From contig CAWDLF010000003.1 of assembly GCA_963803105.1 (NCBI GenBank), positions 25,518-89,517 on the forward strand: 64,000 nt of DNA. The letters are read 5' to 3'. Position numbers and translations under genes: made by a program. Origin of the DNA: Terriglobia bacterium. GTDB lineage: Bacteria > Acidobacteriota > Terriglobia > Acidiferrales > UBA7541. Below the pieces are notes generated by a model. The model made no database searches, had not been told where the DNA came from, and saw only the letters and a program-made list of their open reading frames with translations. Below, one piece after another: positions 5,662 through 44,306 of this stretch (position 1 is the first letter of the stretch; each line of letters starts with the position of its first letter).

Positions 5662-6723
5662 ATGCGGACCGGGGCTGCTATCCGCTCGTTGCTGTTTTCG
5701 TTTGTCCTGCTGGCTTTCTGCCACGGCGTATCCGGGCAAGTCGGCATTTCCGTGAGCTTCGGGCCTCCGGCGCTGCCGATCTACGCGCAGCCAATTTGCC
5801 CCGCCGACGGGTATCTGTGGATGCCCGGCTACTGGGCCTATTATTTCCCCTATGGCTACTACTGGGTGCCGGGCACCTGGGTTCAGCCACCCCAAGTCGG
5901 TTTGCTCTGGACTCCCGGGTATTGGGGATGGGGCGGCAGCAATTTTGTTTTTTACCAGGGATATTGGGGCCCGCAGGTGGGTTACTACGGTGGCATCAAT
6001 TACGGCTACGGTTACGGCGGTGTTGGATATGAAGGCGGCCGCTGGGAAAACGGATACTTCGCTTACAACACATACGTGAACCACGTGAACGCCGCCGTCA
6101 TTCACAACACCTATAGCAACACGGTCACCCGGGCGTCTGAAAATCACATCAGTTACAACGGCGGCGAGGGCGGCATACAGGCGCGCCCCACGCCGGAGCA
6201 AGAGTCATACGCCAACGAACGACACATCGGTCCGGTGACAGCACAAACGCAACATATAGAGGAAGCCCGCAATAATCCCGACCTCCGCGCTTCCGTCAAT
6301 CAGGGCAAGCCGCCCATCGCGGCTACCGCCAAACCCGGCGAGTTCAAGACGGGCGTTGTAGCTTCCAGGGAAGCAGGCGGCGAATACAAGGCGCCCTTAC
6401 CCGATGCCCCGGTCGGTCACGTCGGCGAGCTGCCGGCGCACAACTTTACGCCGCCACATACCGGAAACACCGCGACCGACGAGGAATATCGGCAGCAACA
6501 GAACAAGCTGGCGACTCAGGAAGCGCAGGATCACCAGAAGCTGGAGTTGGAACAGGAGAAAGAACACCAGCAAGCCCTTGAGAAGAACTACAGCGACGCA
6601 CAAAAACTACAGATGGAGCAGCGTCACGTTCAGCAAACGCAACAACTCGAGCAAACCCACGCTAACCAGCAAAGGCAAATGGAGCAGCACCAAGCGCCGA
6701 AGCAGACGACACCGAACAAGTGA
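5662..6723 (+). CDS. Secreted W/Y/G-rich (YXWGXW-type repeat) protein with a Gln-rich coiled-coil tail
   Basis: Signal peptide (LLAFCHGVSGQ), then PGYWAYY..YYWVPGTWV..TPGYWGWGG..YQGYWGPQVGYYGG. The C-terminus is a Q/E/K-rich heptad-like region. Confidence 0.8.
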   Translation: MRTGAAIRSLLFSFVLLAFCHGVSGQVGISVSFGPPALPIYAQPICPADGYLWMPGYWAYYFPYGYYWVPGTWVQPPQVGLLWTPGYWGWGGSNFVFYQGYWGPQVGYYGGINYGYGYGGVGYEGGRWENGYFAYNTYVNHVNAAVIHNTYSNTVTRASENHISYNGGEGGIQARPTPEQESYANERHIGPVTAQTQHIEEARNNPDLRASVNQGKPPIAATAKPGEFKTGVVASREAGGEYKAPLPDAPVGHVGELPAHNFTPPHTGNTATDEEYRQQQNKLATQEAQDHQKLELEQEKEHQQALEKNYSDAQKLQMEQRHVQQTQQLEQTHANQQRQMEQHQAPKQTTPNK

Positions 6724-6776
6724 AGCTCTGCGGGGCAGCGGTTCCTAAGCGGGCATTCAGGACGTTCCGAAGATAC

Positions 6777-9041
6777 CTAGCGAGAATTGAATGTAGGCGA
6801 TGGCGCCGGCTTCTCCGGGTACAAACGCTCGAACTCCGGGTCGCCATGAAGAATGAGGAGATCCGGGTCGCGGCGGGCCCAGATGGAATCTTTCGAACCT
6901 GCTTCCCAGGCCTTACGCAAGGCATCCAGAGCCTCTGGCTTTCTTTTCAGACCGCAGTACACGCAGGCTGCGTTATAGAGAATAGAGGCTTCGTTGGCGC
7001 GCAACGTGACAGCCAGATTGAGCTCGCGCAAGGCGTCTTCCTCCCGCCCCAAAGCTGCATATTTGGCGCCTAGCAGAACGCGGGCCCGCGCGTCCTCAGG
7101 TACTTGTTTTAAGTGGTTTTCGAGCGCGACGACAACCCGGTGGGACATGTTGCGTCCAGCCTCTTCTTTGCCCATGGCGCCCAGAGAATTCATGATCGGC
7201 ACGTAGACGTTGTAGTCCTCGCCGCTTGCTTCAATCGCGGCCTCCGCAACATCCAGAACTTCCTGGTAGCGTCCCGCGGCGAACAGGGCGCGGCCCAGCA
7301 GATAGTAGGCGCCGTCGCAGTCACGCCTGCGCTCGATGGCCTTCTTGACCATGCGCACAGCTTCGTCGTGGAGTCCAGCGGCGTAAAGCACCCAAGCCTG
7401 GCTGACGTGCGTTTCGGGCAAGTCCCAACGCAGTGCTACGGCTCTGCTGGAAGCCTCGCGCGCGCGTTCAATCCAAACCTCATCGCGGGTGAAGATGGAG
7501 TAGTACATCGCGCAGGCGTTAGCGCAGGCGGCGTAAGCCAGGGCGAAGCTGGGGTCCATAGCCACTGCGTTTTCGAACATCTGCAGAGCGAACTCAACGT
7601 CCTGACGCGTCTGCCGCCGGGCGTAACGCTTGCCGCGCAGGTATTGATCATAGGCCTGCGGGTTTTCCGTGGGCTTGTCGGCGAGCGCCTCCAGTTCCTG
7701 CGGGGAAAGCGTCACGCGCAAAGCTTCTGCAATTTTGCGGGCCATCTCGTCCTGTACTTCAAAGACGTCCTTCATTTCGCGATCGAAGCGTTCGGACCAA
7801 AGCGGAAAATCGGTATGCGTGTCCACAAGTTGAGCGCTGATGCGCACACGCGTGCCGGAGCGACGCAAGGTACCAGTGAGGACGTAGGCTGCGCCCAGCT
7901 GTTGGCCGATCTGCGCAGGTGTCACCGACTTGTCGCGGAACGTCAGAACGGTAGGCCGCGAAAAGGTGTTCAGGCCACGAATTTTGGAGAGCTCGGTGAT
8001 GATGTCTTCGGTGATGCCATCGCGCAGATATTCGTCTTCCTTGGAGCCGCTCAAATTTTCAAAATAGAGAACGGCCACCGACTTTCCCGCCTGTTTTGGG
8101 GCGCCGGAGTCCGAATCGGTCCTTTCCTTCGAGCGGCGCTTACTGGATTCGAGGTCGCGCTTCAGCCGGCTCAGGTCGGTTTTCAGGTCAGTGGCCGTTT
8201 GGCAACGAAGATTGCGATCCTTTTCGAGGGTCTTATCCAGGATGCGCACAAAGTCCGCGGGCAGCGACGGATTTAATTCTCCGGCCGGCCTAGGGTCGCG
8301 GTTTAGGATCGCTTCGAAGATGACCGCCGACGTATCTCCCTGAAAGGGAAGCGTCCCAGTTGCCAGCTGATAGAGAACGGTTCCGGTGGAAAAAAGGTCT
8401 GTGCGGGCGTCCACAAGTTGGCCGCGGGCCTGCTCGGGAGACATATAGGAGACCGTGCCGATGGCCGAGCCTGGCGAAGTCAGTTCCAACTCGGCTGCCG
8501 AGGTCTTCCCTTGGCCGGTCGTGGTTCCCGGCGCAACTTCGCTCCGTGTTATCTTGGCCAGACCGAAATCCAGAATTTTTATCTCGCCACGGTCGGTGAG
8601 GAAGAGATTGGCGGGCTTGATGTCGCGGTGAACGATCCCCTTGGCGTGGGCCGATTCGAGTGCGTCTGCGATCTGCACGGAGAGCGGGAGCAGCCTATCC
8701 ATGTCCATCGGCTGGCGGGTCATCTTCTGTGCGAGTGTCTGCCCCTCCAGTAACTCCATGACGATGAAATAGCGGAGCTCGTGCTGCTCGATCGCGTGAA
8801 TGGTGCAGATGTTCGGGTGGTTGAGAGACGAAGCAGCCCGCGCCTCGCGCTGGAAGCGCTCGAGCGACTGAGTGTCCTGAGCCATTTCCGGGGGAAGGAA
8901 CTTCAGCGCCACGCGCCGGCCGAGCTGGGAATCCTCGGCTTCGTAAACAACGCCCATTCCGCCGGCTCCGACCTGTTTGATGATGTGGTAATGAGCGAGC
9001 GTCTGTCCCACAAGAGATGAAGTAGCGGCCATAAGAGGCAC
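6777..9041 (-). CDS. Ser/Thr protein kinase with a C-terminal TPR repeat region
   Basis: GAGGMGVVY, VALKFL, HRDIKPANL, DFGLA and SYMSPEQ kinase motifs, followed by TPR-like repeats in the C-terminal 300 aa. Confidence 0.9.
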   Translation of the reverse strand: MPLMAATSSLVGQTLAHYHIIKQVGAGGMGVVYEAEDSQLGRRVALKFLPPEMAQDTQSLERFQREARAASSLNHPNICTIHAIEQHELRYFIVMELLEGQTLAQKMTRQPMDMDRLLPLSVQIADALESAHAKGIVHRDIKPANLFLTDRGEIKILDFGLAKITRSEVAPGTTTGQGKTSAAELELTSPGSAIGTVSYMSPEQARGQLVDARTDLFSTGTVLYQLATGTLPFQGDTSAVIFEAILNRDPRPAGELNPSLPADFVRILDKTLEKDRNLRCQTATDLKTDLSRLKRDLESSKRRSKERTDSDSGAPKQAGKSVAVLYFENLSGSKEDEYLRDGITEDIITELSKIRGLNTFSRPTVLTFRDKSVTPAQIGQQLGAAYVLTGTLRRSGTRVRISAQLVDTHTDFPLWSERFDREMKDVFEVQDEMARKIAEALRVTLSPQELEALADKPTENPQAYDQYLRGKRYARRQTRQDVEFALQMFENAVAMDPSFALAYAACANACAMYYSIFTRDEVWIERAREASSRAVALRWDLPETHVSQAWVLYAAGLHDEAVRMVKKAIERRRDCDGAYYLLGRALFAAGRYQEVLDVAEAAIEASGEDYNVYVPIMNSLGAMGKEEAGRNMSHRVVVALENHLKQVPEDARARVLLGAKYAALGREEDALRELNLAVTLRANEASILYNAACVYCGLKRKPEALDALRKAWEAGSKDSIWARRDPDLLILHGDPEFERLYPEKPAPSPTFNSR

Positions 9042-39225: not shown

Positions 39226-39302
39226 GCGCTCGTAGCTCAGCTGGATAGAGCGTCTGCCTACGAAGCAGAAGGTCCGGTGTTCGAATCACCGCGGGCGCAC
39301 CA
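39226..39302 (+). tRNA. tRNA-Arg (anticodon ACG)
   Basis: The 77-nt sequence folds by eye into a cloverleaf. Acceptor GCGCTCG/CGGGCGC, D arm GCTC..GAGC, anticodon arm TCTGC-CTACGAA-GCAGA, T arm CGGTG-TTCGAAT-CACCG, discriminator A and an encoded CCA. Confidence 0.95.
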
Positions 39303-39305
39303 TTC
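39258..39305 (+). repeat. att copy 1 (inside the intact tRNA-Arg, from the anticodon loop to 3 nt past CCA)
   Basis: The 48-bp string ctacgaagcagaaggtccggtgttcgaatcaccgcgggcgcaccattc is identical to 43239-43286. Confidence 0.9.
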
Positions 39306-39319
39306 ATTTCCTCAATGTT

Positions 39320-40510
39320 TTATTGAGTGTTTGCAAGGACAGCCTCCTCCACGGCTGCTTCTGCTTGACGCCCATTAGCGCCCAATACGGGGTTAGAAGT
39401 GAGTGTTCTGGGAAGTTCAAAACCAACTCCCATCGACAACGCCACATCCTTGCGGAACTGCAAATCATCGCGCACCCGGTCATAGCGGTCTGACATGTCT
39501 CGCCCGGCGTGGCCCATCCAAAACTTGAGCAGGCCGTCCGGACAATGCAGGTTGCGAAGATGCGTGTTCCTGAAGCGGCGGAAAGCATGGAAGCCGCAAC
39601 GTGGGATTTTGAGGCTGTCTAGTAGGGGATGAAGTTCCCGCCGCAGCGTGTTGCTTTGGCCCATCGGAGTCCCCGTGTCGGTCTCGAAGATGAAACCAGA
39701 CGAACGGTTTCCGATGTAGGTCTTGAGCAGGCTGGCAACGTCCGGGTGCAGATCAACGACGCGAAAGGCATTCATCGTCTTGGGTTTCAGCACCTTGCCG
39801 TTCCAAACCCCTTGCTCGACTTTGACAGACGAACCATCGAAGTGCCGGACTTCAAGGGCGCATAGCTCCCCGGCCCTCAGCCCGGTAGCCGCGAACAAGA
39901 GGGCTGCCATTCGCATCCGTCCGCTCGCTGCTTTCACAAGTTCAGCAACCTGCACACCTGTGAACGAGGGTTTTCGTTGTCTCGTCTCGTCAATGGCGGG
40001 TAGGTCTATGAATTTGTGGTTCCATGTCGTCGGAAAAAGCTGATCGCCTTCACCGTTTACCACGCTGGCTTTCACCAACTTCACCACGAGGACAATGCTA
40101 CGGATGGACGTTGGTGAAAGCTTTTTCTTTGCCAAGCGTTCAACGAGCGAGCGCACTGCACCGTTGCCGATATCCGACAAAGGCACTTCACCGATGCGCG
40201 GATACAGGTGTTTTCGGAGGATGCTTCGCCAGTTATGGGAAACGCTTGGTTTGATCGGCGTACTTCGGTTTTCGCACTGCTCGATCCACCGCATCGCGGC
40301 CGTGCGAAAAGTTGGAGTTGTTATTCGGGAAGGAGCTACGAGATTCTTATTTACAGCGACGAGTTCAGCTTGCATCGCGTTCAATGCACTCCGACGTGTA
40401 GGTAGATCGTCGAAGCCGCCGAGGAACTTCTGCACGCGGGCGGCGTCGCCGTTGTCCTTGATCGAAATAGTCCTCGTAAAGCCTAACTGCCCAGCCGTGA
40501 GTTGTTTCAA
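39320..40510 (-). CDS. int: Tyrosine-type site-specific integrase (phage integrase family)
   Basis: 396 aa. The C-terminal catalytic region has GLRAGELCAL (Arg), HAFRRFRNTHL (His-x-x-Arg) and GHAGRDMSDRY (His...Tyr). The stop lies 17 nt from the tRNA 3' end. Confidence 0.95.
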   Translation of the reverse strand: MKQLTAGQLGFTRTISIKDNGDAARVQKFLGGFDDLPTRRSALNAMQAELVAVNKNLVAPSRITTPTFRTAAMRWIEQCENRSTPIKPSVSHNWRSILRKHLYPRIGEVPLSDIGNGAVRSLVERLAKKKLSPTSIRSIVLVVKLVKASVVNGEGDQLFPTTWNHKFIDLPAIDETRQRKPSFTGVQVAELVKAASGRMRMAALLFAATGLRAGELCALEVRHFDGSSVKVEQGVWNGKVLKPKTMNAFRVVDLHPDVASLLKTYIGNRSSGFIFETDTGTPMGQSNTLRRELHPLLDSLKIPRCGFHAFRRFRNTHLRNLHCPDGLLKFWMGHAGRDMSDRYDRVRDDLQFRKDVALSMGVGFELPRTLTSNPVLGANGRQAEAAVEEAVLANTQ

Positions 40511-40604
40511 TCAATTGCCCGTCCTGGTGCCGTCTGCGGCTCAAAGTTCTCTCTCCTTTGAACCCGTCAACGGCGCGCGATTGTTTCGTTCTTTACGTGA
40601 GCAC

Positions 40605-40853
40605 ATGTCTCGCATGGCGTCGGACGAGCAATTGGCAACAGCGGCTGGTGCTGTAGAACGTGCGAAAGACAAGGTCCGAACAGCGGTTCAAGAGGAAGCT
40701 CAATCGATCAACGAGCGCAACGCCGTTGAGGACAGGTTGCTGGCCGCTCGCGGAGAACTCGCTGCGATTATGCAACAGGAGTACAGAATCAAGGCAGAGC
40801 TGGATGGGGAGTCGTATCGTGATCCAGAACTAGGCTTGGATGTACCAGCTTAA
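40605..40853 (+). CDS. Small coiled-coil protein (82 aa), divergent from the integrase
   Basis: ATG at 40605. The charged heptad-like sequence is EEAQSINERNAVEDRLLAARGELAAIMQQEYRIKAELD. The longer ORF annotation overlaps the integrase and was trimmed. Confidence 0.4.
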   Translation: MSRMASDEQLATAAGAVERAKDKVRTAVQEEAQSINERNAVEDRLLAARGELAAIMQQEYRIKAELDGESYRDPELGLDVPA

Positions 40854-41111
40854 CGAGTTTGTCGATGCGGCCGCATCCGTGTCGACAAAAAGCGCCAGGG
40901 GCGGGAACTGAAGAGCCGTGCATCTGGCACCGTCGGACGCTCCGAATGACGTCCGACACAAGATCCCAGTTCCATAATAAATACTCAAGGAACAGGAACG
41001 GTTGGAGAGCTTGGGGGTTCTTCCGCACCCCCCGATGACTCTCTTCCCCCAAGTGCGATCTTCGTACTAGGAACAGCGGGCAACTGGTCGTCTGCAGGCG
41101 CGAATGCAGCG

Positions 41112-41456
41112 ATGATTGCCACCGCGCCTGCGGTTCTAGCAGCTGCTGGTGCCGTCGGTGGGGTCGCTGTTGTTGGGGAAATTGCTTCATCGATCGGGAG
41201 CACGATATCGGCGGTTTCGGCGACGGTTTGGCAGACCGGAGTAGCCGTTGCGGGTACCGCCGCTGCAATCGGATCCGCGTTAAACACGTGGACCATGCAG
41301 ATTGAAGCCGCTAACCCAGCACTCACACTCACTATCGTCAGTTTGGCAAATGGGTTCGAGGCGGGTGAAGATTCGTCGGCTCCAGAGCTCGATGATTTTG
41401 TAAACCGATTGGGATGGGCTATAAACATCATAGGGCAACTGGCAGACTGGTGGTAG
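41112..41456 (+). CDS. Small Ala/Gly-rich hydrophobic protein (114 aa) ending in ...GQLADWW
   Basis: This is the first possible start in an open frame. It lies 27 nt upstream of the CPBP protease gene on the same strand. All other frames here are also open, so strand choice rests on operon logic. Confidence 0.4.
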   Translation: MIATAPAVLAAAGAVGGVAVVGEIASSIGSTISAVSATVWQTGVAVAGTAAAIGSALNTWTMQIEAANPALTLTIVSLANGFEAGEDSSAPELDDFVNRLGWAINIIGQLADWW

Positions 41457-41483
41457 ATTGCGTCAAGTAGAAAACATTGCCGG

Positions 41484-42260
41484 TTGATAACGAGGCATCT
41501 TCAGTCAGCAATCTGCTATCAAGGGAGGACCTTGACCGAGCTGAACGCTTTTTTAGCGCTTGTGGCATTTCCACTCATCTGGCTCGTAACCCCAGAGCCA
41601 GTGTCCAACCGTTGGGTTCGGCAGCACCAATCGCCAGCTCTGCCTCCGGATATCGCGGCACAATCAGAGAAGAATGGCCGATACCTTTCCTTCGTCAAGT
41701 ACGCATTACTCCTAGTCGTCCTTCGTTTGCTTGCCGCACAAGACTTTCGAAACATCATTTCGCTCGACGAACATTCCCGTCCGTGGCGGCAAATCATACC
41801 AGTGGCGATAGCGGCGGGACTTCTATTATTTGGTTTGCGGCGCCTCATCGTTTTTGTATCCCCAGCGATAGCCTGTACCGAAGATCATGATTACCTTCTC
41901 CGGGGCCCGGTCTCCCTGTGGTTGCTGATTTTTGCGGTGGGGGCCTTCACCGAAGAGTTATGGAGAGCGTTATGTATATCAGGTTTGCAGCGAAATGATC
42001 TCAACGCAATAGCAGCTGATCTCGTGGCGGCGTGCTTCTTCTCTGTTACTCACTTGATGGGCAGACCCTCCCGAATCCCAGAGGGGGTCGGCAATGTCGG
42101 TTCCGAGATGTTGGTGGGTTTGGTACTTGGTGGGCTATTTATACAGTCTGGGACCTTTGTTCCAGCAGCTCTTGCCAGCATAATTTACTACATCACTAAC
42201 CTGTACTGGCTTCGGCGCCGATTCAGAACCTCGTTGATGGGTGACAGAAGACGTCGATGA
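41484..42260 (+). CDS. CPBP family intramembrane glutamic endopeptidase (CAAX protease / Abi / bacteriocin self-immunity family)
   Basis: Multi-TM protein with motif 1 FTEELWRAL (EExxxR) and motif 2 FFSVTHL (FxxxH). A C-terminal helix IIYYITNLY occupies the motif-3 position. The start is uncertain (TTG at 41484 or TTG at 41532 after AAGGGAGGA). Confidence 0.8.
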   Translation: MITRHLQSAICYQGRTLTELNAFLALVAFPLIWLVTPEPVSNRWVRQHQSPALPPDIAAQSEKNGRYLSFVKYALLLVVLRLLAAQDFRNIISLDEHSRPWRQIIPVAIAAGLLLFGLRRLIVFVSPAIACTEDHDYLLRGPVSLWLLIFAVGAFTEELWRALCISGLQRNDLNAIAADLVAACFFSVTHLMGRPSRIPEGVGNVGSEMLVGLVLGGLFIQSGTFVPAALASIIYYITNLYWLRRRFRTSLMGDRRRR

Positions 42261-43031
42261 TGCCTGGTTCCTTCCAATGCGCTCGCGAGTAGGACAGATC
42301 CGGGAGGCCCGCAATCGGGACCAGCGCGGCACTCAGAACGCGAGCGATCGTCCTGGAAGGAAAGCGATTTGCCGGACGCCTCAGAATATCTGACTCAAAC
42401 CCCCTGATCTTTCTACCAGTCTGCTACCACTTATCTCCTCTTGGTGTCCAGCGCTGTCCGGTTGTGTCCACTCGAAGTTTGCAATAGGCAGAGCAAGATT
42501 GGGTAAATCGCAGCTTTTCCTAGCATTCCAGGAAAGGTCTGCGGAAGAAGGTGTTTCAACCTCCGACGGCTTTTGTCATCGAATTGTCATCGAGAGTTGC
42601 TTCCGGAGCCTAAAAACACCTAAAGCATCATCACTAAACGACTGTCTTATCAACGGCACCTAACACGGCAGAACGTCGGATTGTCCTTGAGAGGGACAAA
42701 TCCCTTCAAACAACCATGCTTTTCTAAGGTCGCGGCTATCTGGAGCGACACTGGCCGGCGCAGTCGTGGTCAAGCGCGCGCGGCTCTGGGTCGAGCTTGA
42801 ACACCCGCGGCGGCGAAGAGCCAGCAGACATCCCCACAGTGTCGAGGTCACTTCGATTCCGAGAGGAGGCGTCTGAAGCTAACGCTCTACCGATGACAGC
42901 CAAAGAGCGGGGCATTTCGAGTACGGAAAAAGTACGGAAGCCGCGATGAAACAGCCCAAATAACCGCAATTCCACCGAATGACGGAAACGGAACTCATTG
43001 ATTCCAAATAACTGGAATAGCGACAGTCTGA

Positions 43032-43076
43032 CTGTGGCACCGAGGGTCGCGGGTTCAATCCCCGTCGCTCACCCCA
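43032..43076 (+). pseudogene. 3' fragment of a tRNA-His gene (anticodon loop CTGTGGC through ...CGCTCAC-C-CCA)
   Basis: T arm GCGGG-TTCAATC-CCCGT, acceptor 3' strand CGCTCAC, His-specific discriminator C and CCA. GTG sits in a 7-nt loop context. No matching 5' half (GTGAGCG, D arm) lies upstream. Confidence 0.6.
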
Positions 43077-43238
43077 ACCCCTTCCCCAATGTTTTAGCGG
43101 GTTGTAGCAAGAGCACCCTCGGTTTGGGCGATAGGGGCCTGACGCCCAATAACGCCCTTTGAGACCACTAAAATTCGAGAGAGTTTTCACTTATAAACCG
43201 CGCGCCGTCAACAGGTTAGCGAATTTTGTATTGTTTAG

Positions 43239-43286
43239 CTACGAAGCAGAAGGTCCGGTGTTCGAATCACCGCGGGCGCACCATTC
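43239..43286 (+). repeat. att copy 2 (48/48 identical to the tRNA-Arg 3' part)
   Basis: Direct comparison with 39258-39305. Confidence 0.9.
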
Positions 43287-43373
43287 TATTTCTCGTCCTT
43301 CGCATTCAGTAACTCTTCCTAGACACTTCTCCGTGACACATCTCCTCCGGAGGTGAGTTGTTAAGCTTGGTAA

Positions 43374-43943
43374 CTACTTTTTGTTGAGGTCGTCGTCCTT
43401 GTAATATTTCGTACCTTGCAGGGTCAATTGGAGGGCGAGGCCATTCTTGGTGATCTGGTAGACCCACACTCCCGGGGCAACTTCAGCCGCTCCCGAGTAA
43501 GCTCCACCCTTCTCGCCCACTTTGGCAGCAGCGTCCACTTGCCCTGAACCGGACCAGCCCGAGTTCAGAAATTTTGCTAGTACCTTGTTGTTCGCGAAGA
43601 CGAACACCGCGGCATAGTCTTTCACTCCGAGGCCCAGACCGGCACCGACTGAACCCATCTTCATGAAGGTCTCTTGCTTGGTCTTGTTGTTGACGGCCAG
43701 TCCTGAACCGCGTGCGGTGCTCAACAGCAATACGTTCACGCCCATGTTGTCGAAAACAGCGTATCCCGCGGCTTTCTGGATAGTTGCTTGGGAGGTGGGT
43801 TCCATCTTGTACAAATCCTGCAAGGCCTCGGTGGCCATCTTGCGGGTTTTATCCCTTTTTTCGTCGTTGTCATCTGCGGCAATGCATAGACCTGCGGAGA
43901 GCATCGTCATCGCCAGAATCGAGGCGATCATCCTGATTTTCAC
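43374..43943 (-). CDS. SYLF (Ysc84/DUF500-like) lipid-binding domain protein, secreted
   Basis: AAGGAAGGA RBS before the GTG at 43943 (an ATG at 43931 is the alternative) and a signal peptide. The Gly-rich SYLF-like core is GSGLAVNNKT...GSVGAGLGLGVKDY...GWSGSGQVDAAA. Confidence 0.75.
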   Translation of the reverse strand: MKIRMIASILAMTMLSAGLCIAADDNDEKRDKTRKMATEALQDLYKMEPTSQATIQKAAGYAVFDNMGVNVLLLSTARGSGLAVNNKTKQETFMKMGSVGAGLGLGVKDYAAVFVFANNKVLAKFLNSGWSGSGQVDAAAKVGEKGGAYSGAAEVAPGVWVYQITKNGLALQLTLQGTKYYKDDDLNKK

Positions 43944-44116
43944 TGGGATCCTTCCTTTCCGGAGTCCGGCGGCCACGTTCTGAGCTTGTTGATCCCCACA
44001 GACGCGAAGAGGCCTCCTGCCCATCGACTCAAACTAAAACTCCAGGTCTCCTGGTGTAGCTGATCCCCAAAGCAGGGACAACTAGGGCTTTCCCTAGGGC
44101 GGTGTTTGAGAGCTGG

Positions 44117-44151
44117 AGGTCCGGTGTTCGAATCACCGCGGGCGCACCATT
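44117..44151 (+). repeat. att copy 3 (35 bp identical to the tRNA-Arg T arm, acceptor and CCA plus 2 nt)
   Basis: aggtccggtgttcgaatcaccgcgggcgcaccatt matches 39270-39304. The flank after it (tttctctcgt) resembles the flank after copy 2 (tatttctcgt). Confidence 0.85.
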
Positions 44152-44306
44152 TTTCTCTCGTAACTCTAACCTCCGTATCGTCCCGTCATTTGTTGTAATC
44201 CCGAAAAGCTGGCCACCACCGGCTCGGTTTGTCCTATGATGTGAGCATCCTAGCCCGGACGACTCGTCGTTTTGCGTTCAAATCTCGGTTTCAGTGGAGA
44301 GAAATC

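Follow-up and report, generated by a model that had tools for sequence, protein, structure and literature searches.

The DNA analysed was a 64-kb stretch, the window, of contig CAWDLF010000003.1 from a Terriglobia bacterium, and coordinates are window positions unless another locus is named. At 40605-42260, inside an integrative island of about 4 kb (39258-43294) located at a tRNA-Arg gene, lies a short cargo region that consists of a gene for a CPBP-family membrane protein preceded by an open reading frame (ORF) of 114 codons, rich in alanine and glycine, and a second ORF of 82 codons (Table 1). A first-pass annotation had proposed that the 114-aa ORF and the CPBP gene are a toxin or bacteriocin with its immunity protein, or an abortive-infection-like pair. 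The reading that we favour, tentatively, is that the locus carries an immunity-type membrane protein, possibly accompanied by an orphan membrane-toxin module, on a decaying island.

Table 1. Features of the tRNA-Arg island in window coordinates
Feature	Position	Strand	Basis or remark
tRNA-Arg(ACG), island integration target	39226-39302	+	ARAGORN; Rfam tRNA, 66.3 bits
Left direct repeat (attL), tRNA 3' part plus 11 nt, 56 nt	39258-39313		Repeat search; reference copy
Tyrosine integrase, main frame, 396 aa from TTG	39320-40510	-	PF00589, 1.1e-13; PF22022; phrog_1, 2.3e-32
Integrase N-terminal segment MSRRRHQDGQL...WAVRLYEDYF, different reading frame	40365-40544	-	tblastn
Acidic Ala/Glu-rich ORF, 82 aa, orphan, candidate gene	40605-40853	+	Called on contig L001; excess of G at codon position 1 (G1), 0.25
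Ala/Gly/Val-rich, Lys-free hydrophobic ORF, 114 aa, from ATG	41112-41456	+	Orphan; candidate membrane-active toxin-like module or chance ORF
CPBP/Rce1-like polytopic membrane protein, 242 aa	41532-42260 (longest ORF from TTG 41484)	+	PF02517, homologs, hydropathy
Island tail, about 1 kb, no convincing gene	42261-43238		Strongly negative ORF coding scores; no family matches
Right direct repeat (attR)	43239-43294		Repeat search; 95% identical to attL

The mobile island is genuine. A tRNA target, direct repeats at both ends and a tyrosine integrase were all present, so that the placement of the cargo on a mobile island in the first-pass annotation was borne out, as was its description of the background as acidobacterial-like: the closest integrase relatives found, with 42-57% identity, were all from metagenome-assembled genomes of Acidobacteriota (Acidoferrales, Acidobacteriaceae and Sulfotelmatobacter). 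The G+C content was 51-59% in the island versus 56-64% in the flanks. The integrase N-terminal segment, MSRRRHQDGQLIETTHGWAVRLYEDYF, is in one frame with the body of the protein in L008 and L009, while in the window it is 34 nt off register by tblastn. The break is a 1-nt shift near 40450-40480, where there is no long homopolymer, and the same frameshifted sequence is present in a Logan contig, L001. Because this frameshift splits the N-terminal segment from the body, the integrase is, as judged from its reading frames, probably a pseudogene or N-terminally truncated, and the island is probably immobilised or decaying.

The CPBP gene and its catalytic motifs

The CPBP gene is almost certainly real. 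Its product scored 32.1 bits with PF02517 (Rce1-like), above the gathering cut-off of 22.4, with an E value of 1.4e-7 and a match that spans positions 4-89 of the 93 in the profile. Five homologs with 37-47% identity were found in a set of 5.8 billion protein clusters, all of them carrying PF02517, and 14 further loci were recovered from JGI metagenomes, giving about 19 loci in total. The gene is intact, and its alignment with the homologs runs over the full length, with 35 invariant columns. On the strength of the family match and of these loci, the CPBP gene is the only one in the cargo with evolutionary support. At least six hydrophobic 19-residue segments with a Kyte-Doolittle value of 1.4 or more indicate a polytopic membrane topology. 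The AlphaFold2 model, built on a six-sequence alignment, was all-helical and of low confidence, with a pLDDT (predicted local distance difference test) of 47.5, and a PDB sequence search with the CPBP profile gave no match.

The homologs all begin M/L-T/S-E-L/F, mostly from a TTG codon, and the equivalent position in the window is TTG 41532, directly preceded by AGGGAGGA. This correspondence makes TTG 41532 the likely start, and the predicted protein would therefore have 242 residues and be separated from the 114-aa ORF, which is on the same strand, by 75 nt. The gap of 27 nt reported in the first-pass annotation is correct for the longest ORF and does not hold for the conserved start, so the spacing lies between 27 and 75 nt. 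A TTG start appears to be near-universal in this subfamily (window 41532; L002, L003, L013-L024), and gene callers may therefore misplace the start.

The signature motifs of the family were partly retained. The glutamate pair of motif 1 is invariant, with the arginine one residue closer than usual; the sequence EE[LFS]WRALC, that is EExxR rather than EExxxR, occurs in all 16 of 16 subfamily members. FTEELWR in the window, previously taken as EExxxR, is thus EE-x-x-R. Motif 2, FxxxH, is present as FSVTH, with F170 and H174 invariant in the alignment. Motif 3, HxxxN in the last transmembrane (TM) helix, is absent: the window protein has S216...Y220 (ASIIYY), and the HxxxN columns read S/N-x-x-Y/F-Y/F in 14 of the 14 members of the window clade, whereas HFxAN is kept in the distant homologs L023 and L024. 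The histidine and asparagine of HxxxN form the oxyanion hole and are among four residues critical for catalysis in the CPBP family (PMC11980579). With this motif lost, proteolytic activity of the window clade is doubtful. Of the earlier designation as a CPBP/Abi intramembrane protease, the family membership and the multi-pass membrane ORF therefore stand, while the word protease is questionable.

The same loss bears on an alternative in which the CPBP protein would process or sort the adjacent protein as its substrate, comparable to the myxosortases MrtX/MrtJ with a neighbour that carries a C-terminal tag, or to MroQ/AgrD. The myxosortases are likewise Gram-negative members of the family, and two-gene neighbourhoods of a CPBP enzyme and a single target are documented (PMC11980579); moreover, a hydrophobic C-terminal segment ends both the 114-aa ORF and an RHS protein encoded upstream of one CPBP homolog (L015, below). 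However, MrtX has the full E, E, H, N set and acts on Cys-containing C-terminal tags (PMC11980579), while the window clade lacks the H and N described as critical for catalysis. The C-terminus of the 114-aa ORF has neither a Cys-containing signature nor a TM-plus-Arg tail, and the putative substrate is not conserved. We consider a processing role distinctly improbable.

An abortive-infection or anti-phage function of the pair, also offered in the first-pass annotation, is highly improbable. All that speaks for it is that PF02517 has historically been labelled Abi and that the pair sits on a mobile island. Against it, no island protein had a PADLOC match, none other than the integrase had a PHROG match, relatives of the CPBP subfamily occurred in 0 of 2.9 million viral contigs, and the neighbourhoods of the homologs were devoid of defence genes.

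In one lineage, an IS200/IS605-type Y1 transposase gene (PF01797) stands divergent beside the CPBP homolog (L003 5122-5655, also L005), and a gene for a GWxTD/TPR protein lies convergent and downstream, conserved in that lineage only. Across clades, the CPBP loci had no neighbour in common; a candidate conserved neighbour was rejected, as it was found only within near-identical genomes.

The small open reading frames

The 114-aa ORF is dominated by small and hydrophobic residues (A 25, G 12, V 11, I 10, T 9, S 9), with A/G/V/S/T amounting to 58% and a grand average of hydropathy of 0.74. It contains no lysine and one arginine, has one strongly hydrophobic segment at residues 7-25 and ends in LGWAINIIGQLADWW. 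The open frame reaches upstream to 40950, with no start codon over those 54 codons. The AlphaFold2 model was all-helical with a pLDDT of 54.

The ORF, its composition and its C-terminal end were thus as first described. The GxxxG/AxxxA-like spacing attributed to it did not hold up: neither small-xxx-small ladders nor GxxxG spacing exceeded that in shuffles of the same residues, and a GxxxG enrichment was rejected as explained by composition. The sole strict (G/A/S)xxxGxxxG match, at residues 77-89, sits in a polar acidic stretch, so that an extended glycine zipper in a hydrophobic helix, of the type found in Cdz, TelE and EsxX, was not present.

Homologs of the 114-aa ORF were not found. A word-indexed search of 5.8e9 clusters returned one match, the ORF itself on L001, and a full HMMER scan of 1.84e9 representatives returned two, the same sequence on L001 and protein P0007. 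The latter, a 4668-aa protein with a type IX secretion system tail and immunoglobulin (Ig) and lectin-like repeats, was rejected as a homolog because a weak 41-residue match had been summed over eight repeats. L001, a contig of 2253 bp, was rejected as independent support because its DNA is 100% identical to window 39275-41527. There was no match in Pfam, PHROGs, PADLOC or NCBIfam, nor by tblastn in phage and plasmid collections, and the PDB matches, such as thioredoxin h at E 0.03, were attributable to chance. No PxxxxDPxGL motif, which marks the end of an RHS core, was found in any frame upstream of 41112, and no RHS similarity was detected across the window.

The 82-aa ORF exists as previously listed and begins at an ATG within a longer open frame (40095-40853). 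Its only match was itself on L001; Pfam, PHROGs, PADLOC and NCBIfam gave none, and neither did the PDB, phages or plasmids. Positions 40605 and 41112 are each divisible by three, so that both small ORFs share one reading frame, interrupted by only two stops (40851-40853 and about 40947-40949); the shared frame could be chance, which has a likelihood of 1 in 3, or a relic of one longer gene.

Several measures of coding potential were compared. On the opposite strand, the 114-aa ORF faces overlapping ORFs of 148 and 159 aa, and with host-trained codon log-odds the plus frame scored +0.014 bits per codon versus -0.135 and -0.15 for the antisense frames. These codon scores and the synonymous-codon scores were rejected as a coding test, since the CPBP gene itself scored like a spurious ORF; the codon usage of the island is foreign to the host model, and for this reason the scores do not discriminate. 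Both small ORFs were called as genes on L001. The G1 frequency of the 114-aa ORF was 0.50, a value exceeded by 2% of known spurious ORFs and approached by the antisense 148-aa ORF, and the G1/purine periodicity of both small ORFs was above that of 98% of the known spurious ORFs in the window. The coding evidence for 41112-41456 therefore favours the plus strand weakly: the plus frame assumed in the first-pass annotation had the best codon log-odds, and the antisense 148-aa ORF was close to it in G1.

RHS toxins upstream of CPBP homologs and the case for immunity

The evidence for an immunity role came from two CPBP homologs that lie downstream of RHS modules. In L015, a large RHS protein (PF05593, 67.8 bits) has a core boundary ending in ...NSPLDEVDPTGL (DPTGL) followed by a 189-aa C-terminal domain, and a CPBP gene of the clade that lacks motif 3 begins 64-70 nt after the RHS gene on the same strand. 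The spot directly after the toxin is the position of the immunity gene in polymorphic toxin loci (PMC3482391). A PDB search with the C-terminal region of the L015 protein gave no match. In L023, a short ORF opens with an RHS core tail, NPQTLNLYAMVSDNPETFADLDGH (a degenerate core end), and continues into a C-terminal domain; as it starts with the core tail, this ORF is an orphan toxin tip. Next come a gene for a Zn-ribbon membrane protein and, after it, a CPBP gene with the canonical HxxxN. Homologous Zn-ribbon plus two-TM proteins are encoded directly upstream of the CPBP gene in L023 (836-1288) and L024 (112-453), with 30% identity and E 3e-7. By gene content and motif, the Zn-ribbon protein and the HxxxN-retaining CPBP protein of these loci make up a two-gene module that is conserved and separate from the window clade.

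Mobile DNA borders the L015 locus as well: at 6205-7046, which is downstream of the RHS-CPBP pair, it has a serine recombinase (PF00239, 8.6e-48) and a small ORF without a Pfam match that resembles, by eye, a DNA-binding or excisionase-type protein.

The 114-aa ORF resembles both RHS C-terminal domains in composition. The last 114 residues contain 25 Ala and 12 Gly in the window ORF, 28 and 13 in the L015 domain, and 27 and 14 in the L023 tip; the A/G/V/S/T fractions are 0.58, 0.59 and 0.58, and the lysines number 0, 0 and 4, respectively. When the C-terminal 114 residues of 501 ORFs of at least 100 aa, from about 214 kb, were ranked by Jensen-Shannon divergence of composition from the 114-aa ORF, L015 was second and L023 sixth. 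The rough probability of these ranks is about 0.006, given that about ten upstream ORFs could have scored. An earlier comparison, an enrichment in 3 of 4 cases, had used post hoc thresholds and was dropped in favour of the rankings, which give a weaker signal.

The pairing of a toxin with its immunity protein, as first proposed, thus gained indirect support for its CPBP half from two homologs downstream of RHS modules whose C-terminal domains are similar in composition to the 114-aa ORF. The small ORF has no homolog. As in an RHS toxin/immunity cassette, the CPBP gene of the window stands downstream on the same strand; an RHS core end and homology to a toxin domain were both absent. For the window itself, the lead comes from composition and from the two analogous loci.

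The proposed mechanism is as follows. The CPBP protein, a divergent polytopic inner-membrane protein, would act as an immunity protein that guards the membrane from Ala/Gly-rich, membrane-inserting toxin domains, and it would do so by binding or excluding these domains in the bilayer, not by cleavage. The 114-aa ORF would be a cognate toxin-like module, an orphan cassette that, having no delivery domain, is proposed to be silent or weakly expressed, and the selectable function of the island would reside in the immunity gene. That the CPBP protein confers immunity, that the 114-aa ORF is a toxin and that the mechanism is non-proteolytic are inferences. An immunity-type role of the CPBP protein is, in our judgement, an even call; given that role, the balance tips slightly towards the 114-aa ORF as its toxin-like partner. 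A simpler version of the favoured reading is that the island carries just an orphan immunity gene.

Several observations weigh against this reading, 1) the 114-aa ORF has no homolog, 2) it has no recognisable Shine-Dalgarno sequence, promoter-like site, delivery domain or RHS core remnant, 3) the lengths of the small ORFs are no evidence, since random sequence matched to the island in length and first-order composition would contain about 3.2 ORFs of 114 aa or more and 9.6 of 82 aa or more, 4) the integrase is frameshifted, so that the island may be collecting junk, 5) most CPBP homologs stand alone among varied neighbours (Y1 transposase, PD40 propeller protein and others), 6) in a sliding-window version the composition signal was weaker, with L015 tenth and L023 outside the top 15, 7) beyond composition, the 114-aa ORF shows no similarity to the RHS C-terminal domain of either L015 or L023 (shuffle z 0.5-1.1) and 8) AlphaFold2 gave no structural support, both protein models being of low confidence. 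The co-occurrence of the small ORF with CPBP genes expected from the first-pass proposal was not seen: none of the about 19 loci encodes a relative of either small ORF, and co-occurrence cannot be shown because the 114-aa ORF has no homolog anywhere.

Many of these points are accounted for by a rival that we regard as quite possible, namely that both small ORFs arose as chance frames, or are remnants, within an island undergoing decay and that the CPBP protein works alone as an accessory membrane protein in a role that has nothing to do with them, for example in envelope maintenance or in the processing of an unlinked substrate. The strict orphan status of both small ORFs, their expected number by chance and the long antisense overlaps, the missing Shine-Dalgarno or promoter-like site, the frameshifted integrase with about 1 kb of geneless island, and the lack of an upstream partner at most CPBP loci all agree with it. 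However, among overlapping frames the plus frame of the 114-aa ORF had the best score, an independent gene call selected it as well, the periodicity of both small ORFs was higher than that of nearly all spurious ORFs, and the composition resembles that of real toxin C-terminal domains encoded upstream of CPBP homologs. Were this rival true, the locus would be an unremarkable leftover of an island, with a single gene for a membrane protein that is poorly characterised.

The favoured reading, a membrane immunity protein with or without an orphan toxin module, has its closest parallel in Tse5 (RhsP1) and Tsi5 of Pseudomonas aeruginosa, where an Rhs protein whose C-terminal toxin inserts into membranes and forms pores is paired with a membrane immunity protein (PMC9637101, PMC10684867). 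L015 is similar in having an RHS protein, a hydrophobic C-terminal domain of no enzymatic family and an integral membrane protein directly after it, and the window has the same order of hydrophobic module and membrane protein. Unlike the CPBP protein, Tsi5 is a small two-TM protein, and unlike Tse5, the candidate toxin of the window has no RHS body, DPxGL boundary or detectable similarity to C-terminal toxin domains. The immunity protein that neutralises a channel-forming effector is almost always a polytopic membrane protein, and genes of this kind are also found as island orphans (PMC12744356). EsxX and ExiCD illustrate the concept, a polytopic membrane immunity to a depolarising toxin that is found as an orphan in toxin-less strains, but belong to a Gram-positive type VII secretion LXG system in which ExiC is DUF5079 and ExiD is DUF5080, not CPBP (PMC12744356). 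In the Cdz system, the glycine-zipper bacteriocins CdzC and CdzD occur with CdzI, and CaaX proteases were noted in or near the carrying islands (PMC5380434). Points of likeness are small proteins made up mainly of Gly and small hydrophobic residues, an immunity protein in the membrane, loci gained by horizontal transfer and CaaX proteases nearby, whereas the extended strict GxxxGxxxG zippers, RTX-like secretion signals and type I secretion system of Cdz have no counterpart in the window.

Class IIb bacteriocins carry double-glycine leaders and have dedicated ATP-binding cassette (ABC) exporters. Abi/CPBP proteins provide immunity to bacteriocins of this class (PMC8538875); for SkkI, PlnI and PlnL of lactic acid bacteria, a PF02517 protein beside a small hydrophobic membrane-active peptide, self-immunity was proposed (Kjos et al. 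2010, as given in PMC8538875). The window differs in that its CPBP clade lacks HxxxN, the N-terminus of the small ORF is not leader-like, with no basic n-region and no double-glycine site, and the island has no transporter gene. No description of CPBP proteins as immunity factors of Rhs proteins or of the type VI secretion system was found in the literature, and in one in-silico survey the CPBP genes of type VI secretion clusters are classed as miscellaneous.

A broader proposal, speculative and rather unlikely, is that the CPBP clade without motif 3 has been recruited in Acidobacteriota for immunity against RHS-delivered, Ala/Gly-rich, membrane-inserting toxin domains, and that minimal tRNA islands like that of the window shuttle orphan toxin-tip/immunity cassettes from genome to genome. 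Should the immunity reading itself be right, the self-immunity role of Abi/CPBP proteins would widen from the bacteriocins of Firmicutes to RHS-type contact-dependent toxins in Acidobacteriota. The CPBP scaffold would protect without its oxyanion-hole residues, which bears on whether Abi-type immunity needs proteolysis, and a very small vehicle, of 4 kb, would spread orphan immunity genes in soil bacteria.

The island tail and the right border

No Rfam family, terminator or promoter pattern of note was found in the region. Within the island tail, the sequence at about 43030-43076, read directly, resembles the 3' half of a different tRNA, with a T-arm GCGGG/TTCAATC/CCCGT, an acceptor strand CGCTCAC, a discriminator C and CCA. 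It was called neither by ARAGORN nor by Rfam and may be a relic attachment site of an earlier host, or part of a nested element.

A third copy of the tRNA-Arg 3' repeat lies at 44105-44160, 866 nt past attR, and is 77% identical, with the core GGAGGTCCGGTGTTCGAATCACCGCGGGCGCACCA unchanged. The interval that it bounds, 43295-44104, contains a single gene, which encodes a Ysc84-domain protein (43374-44024, minus strand) and has host-like codon usage. The segment 43295-44160 looks like what is left of an earlier integration in tandem.

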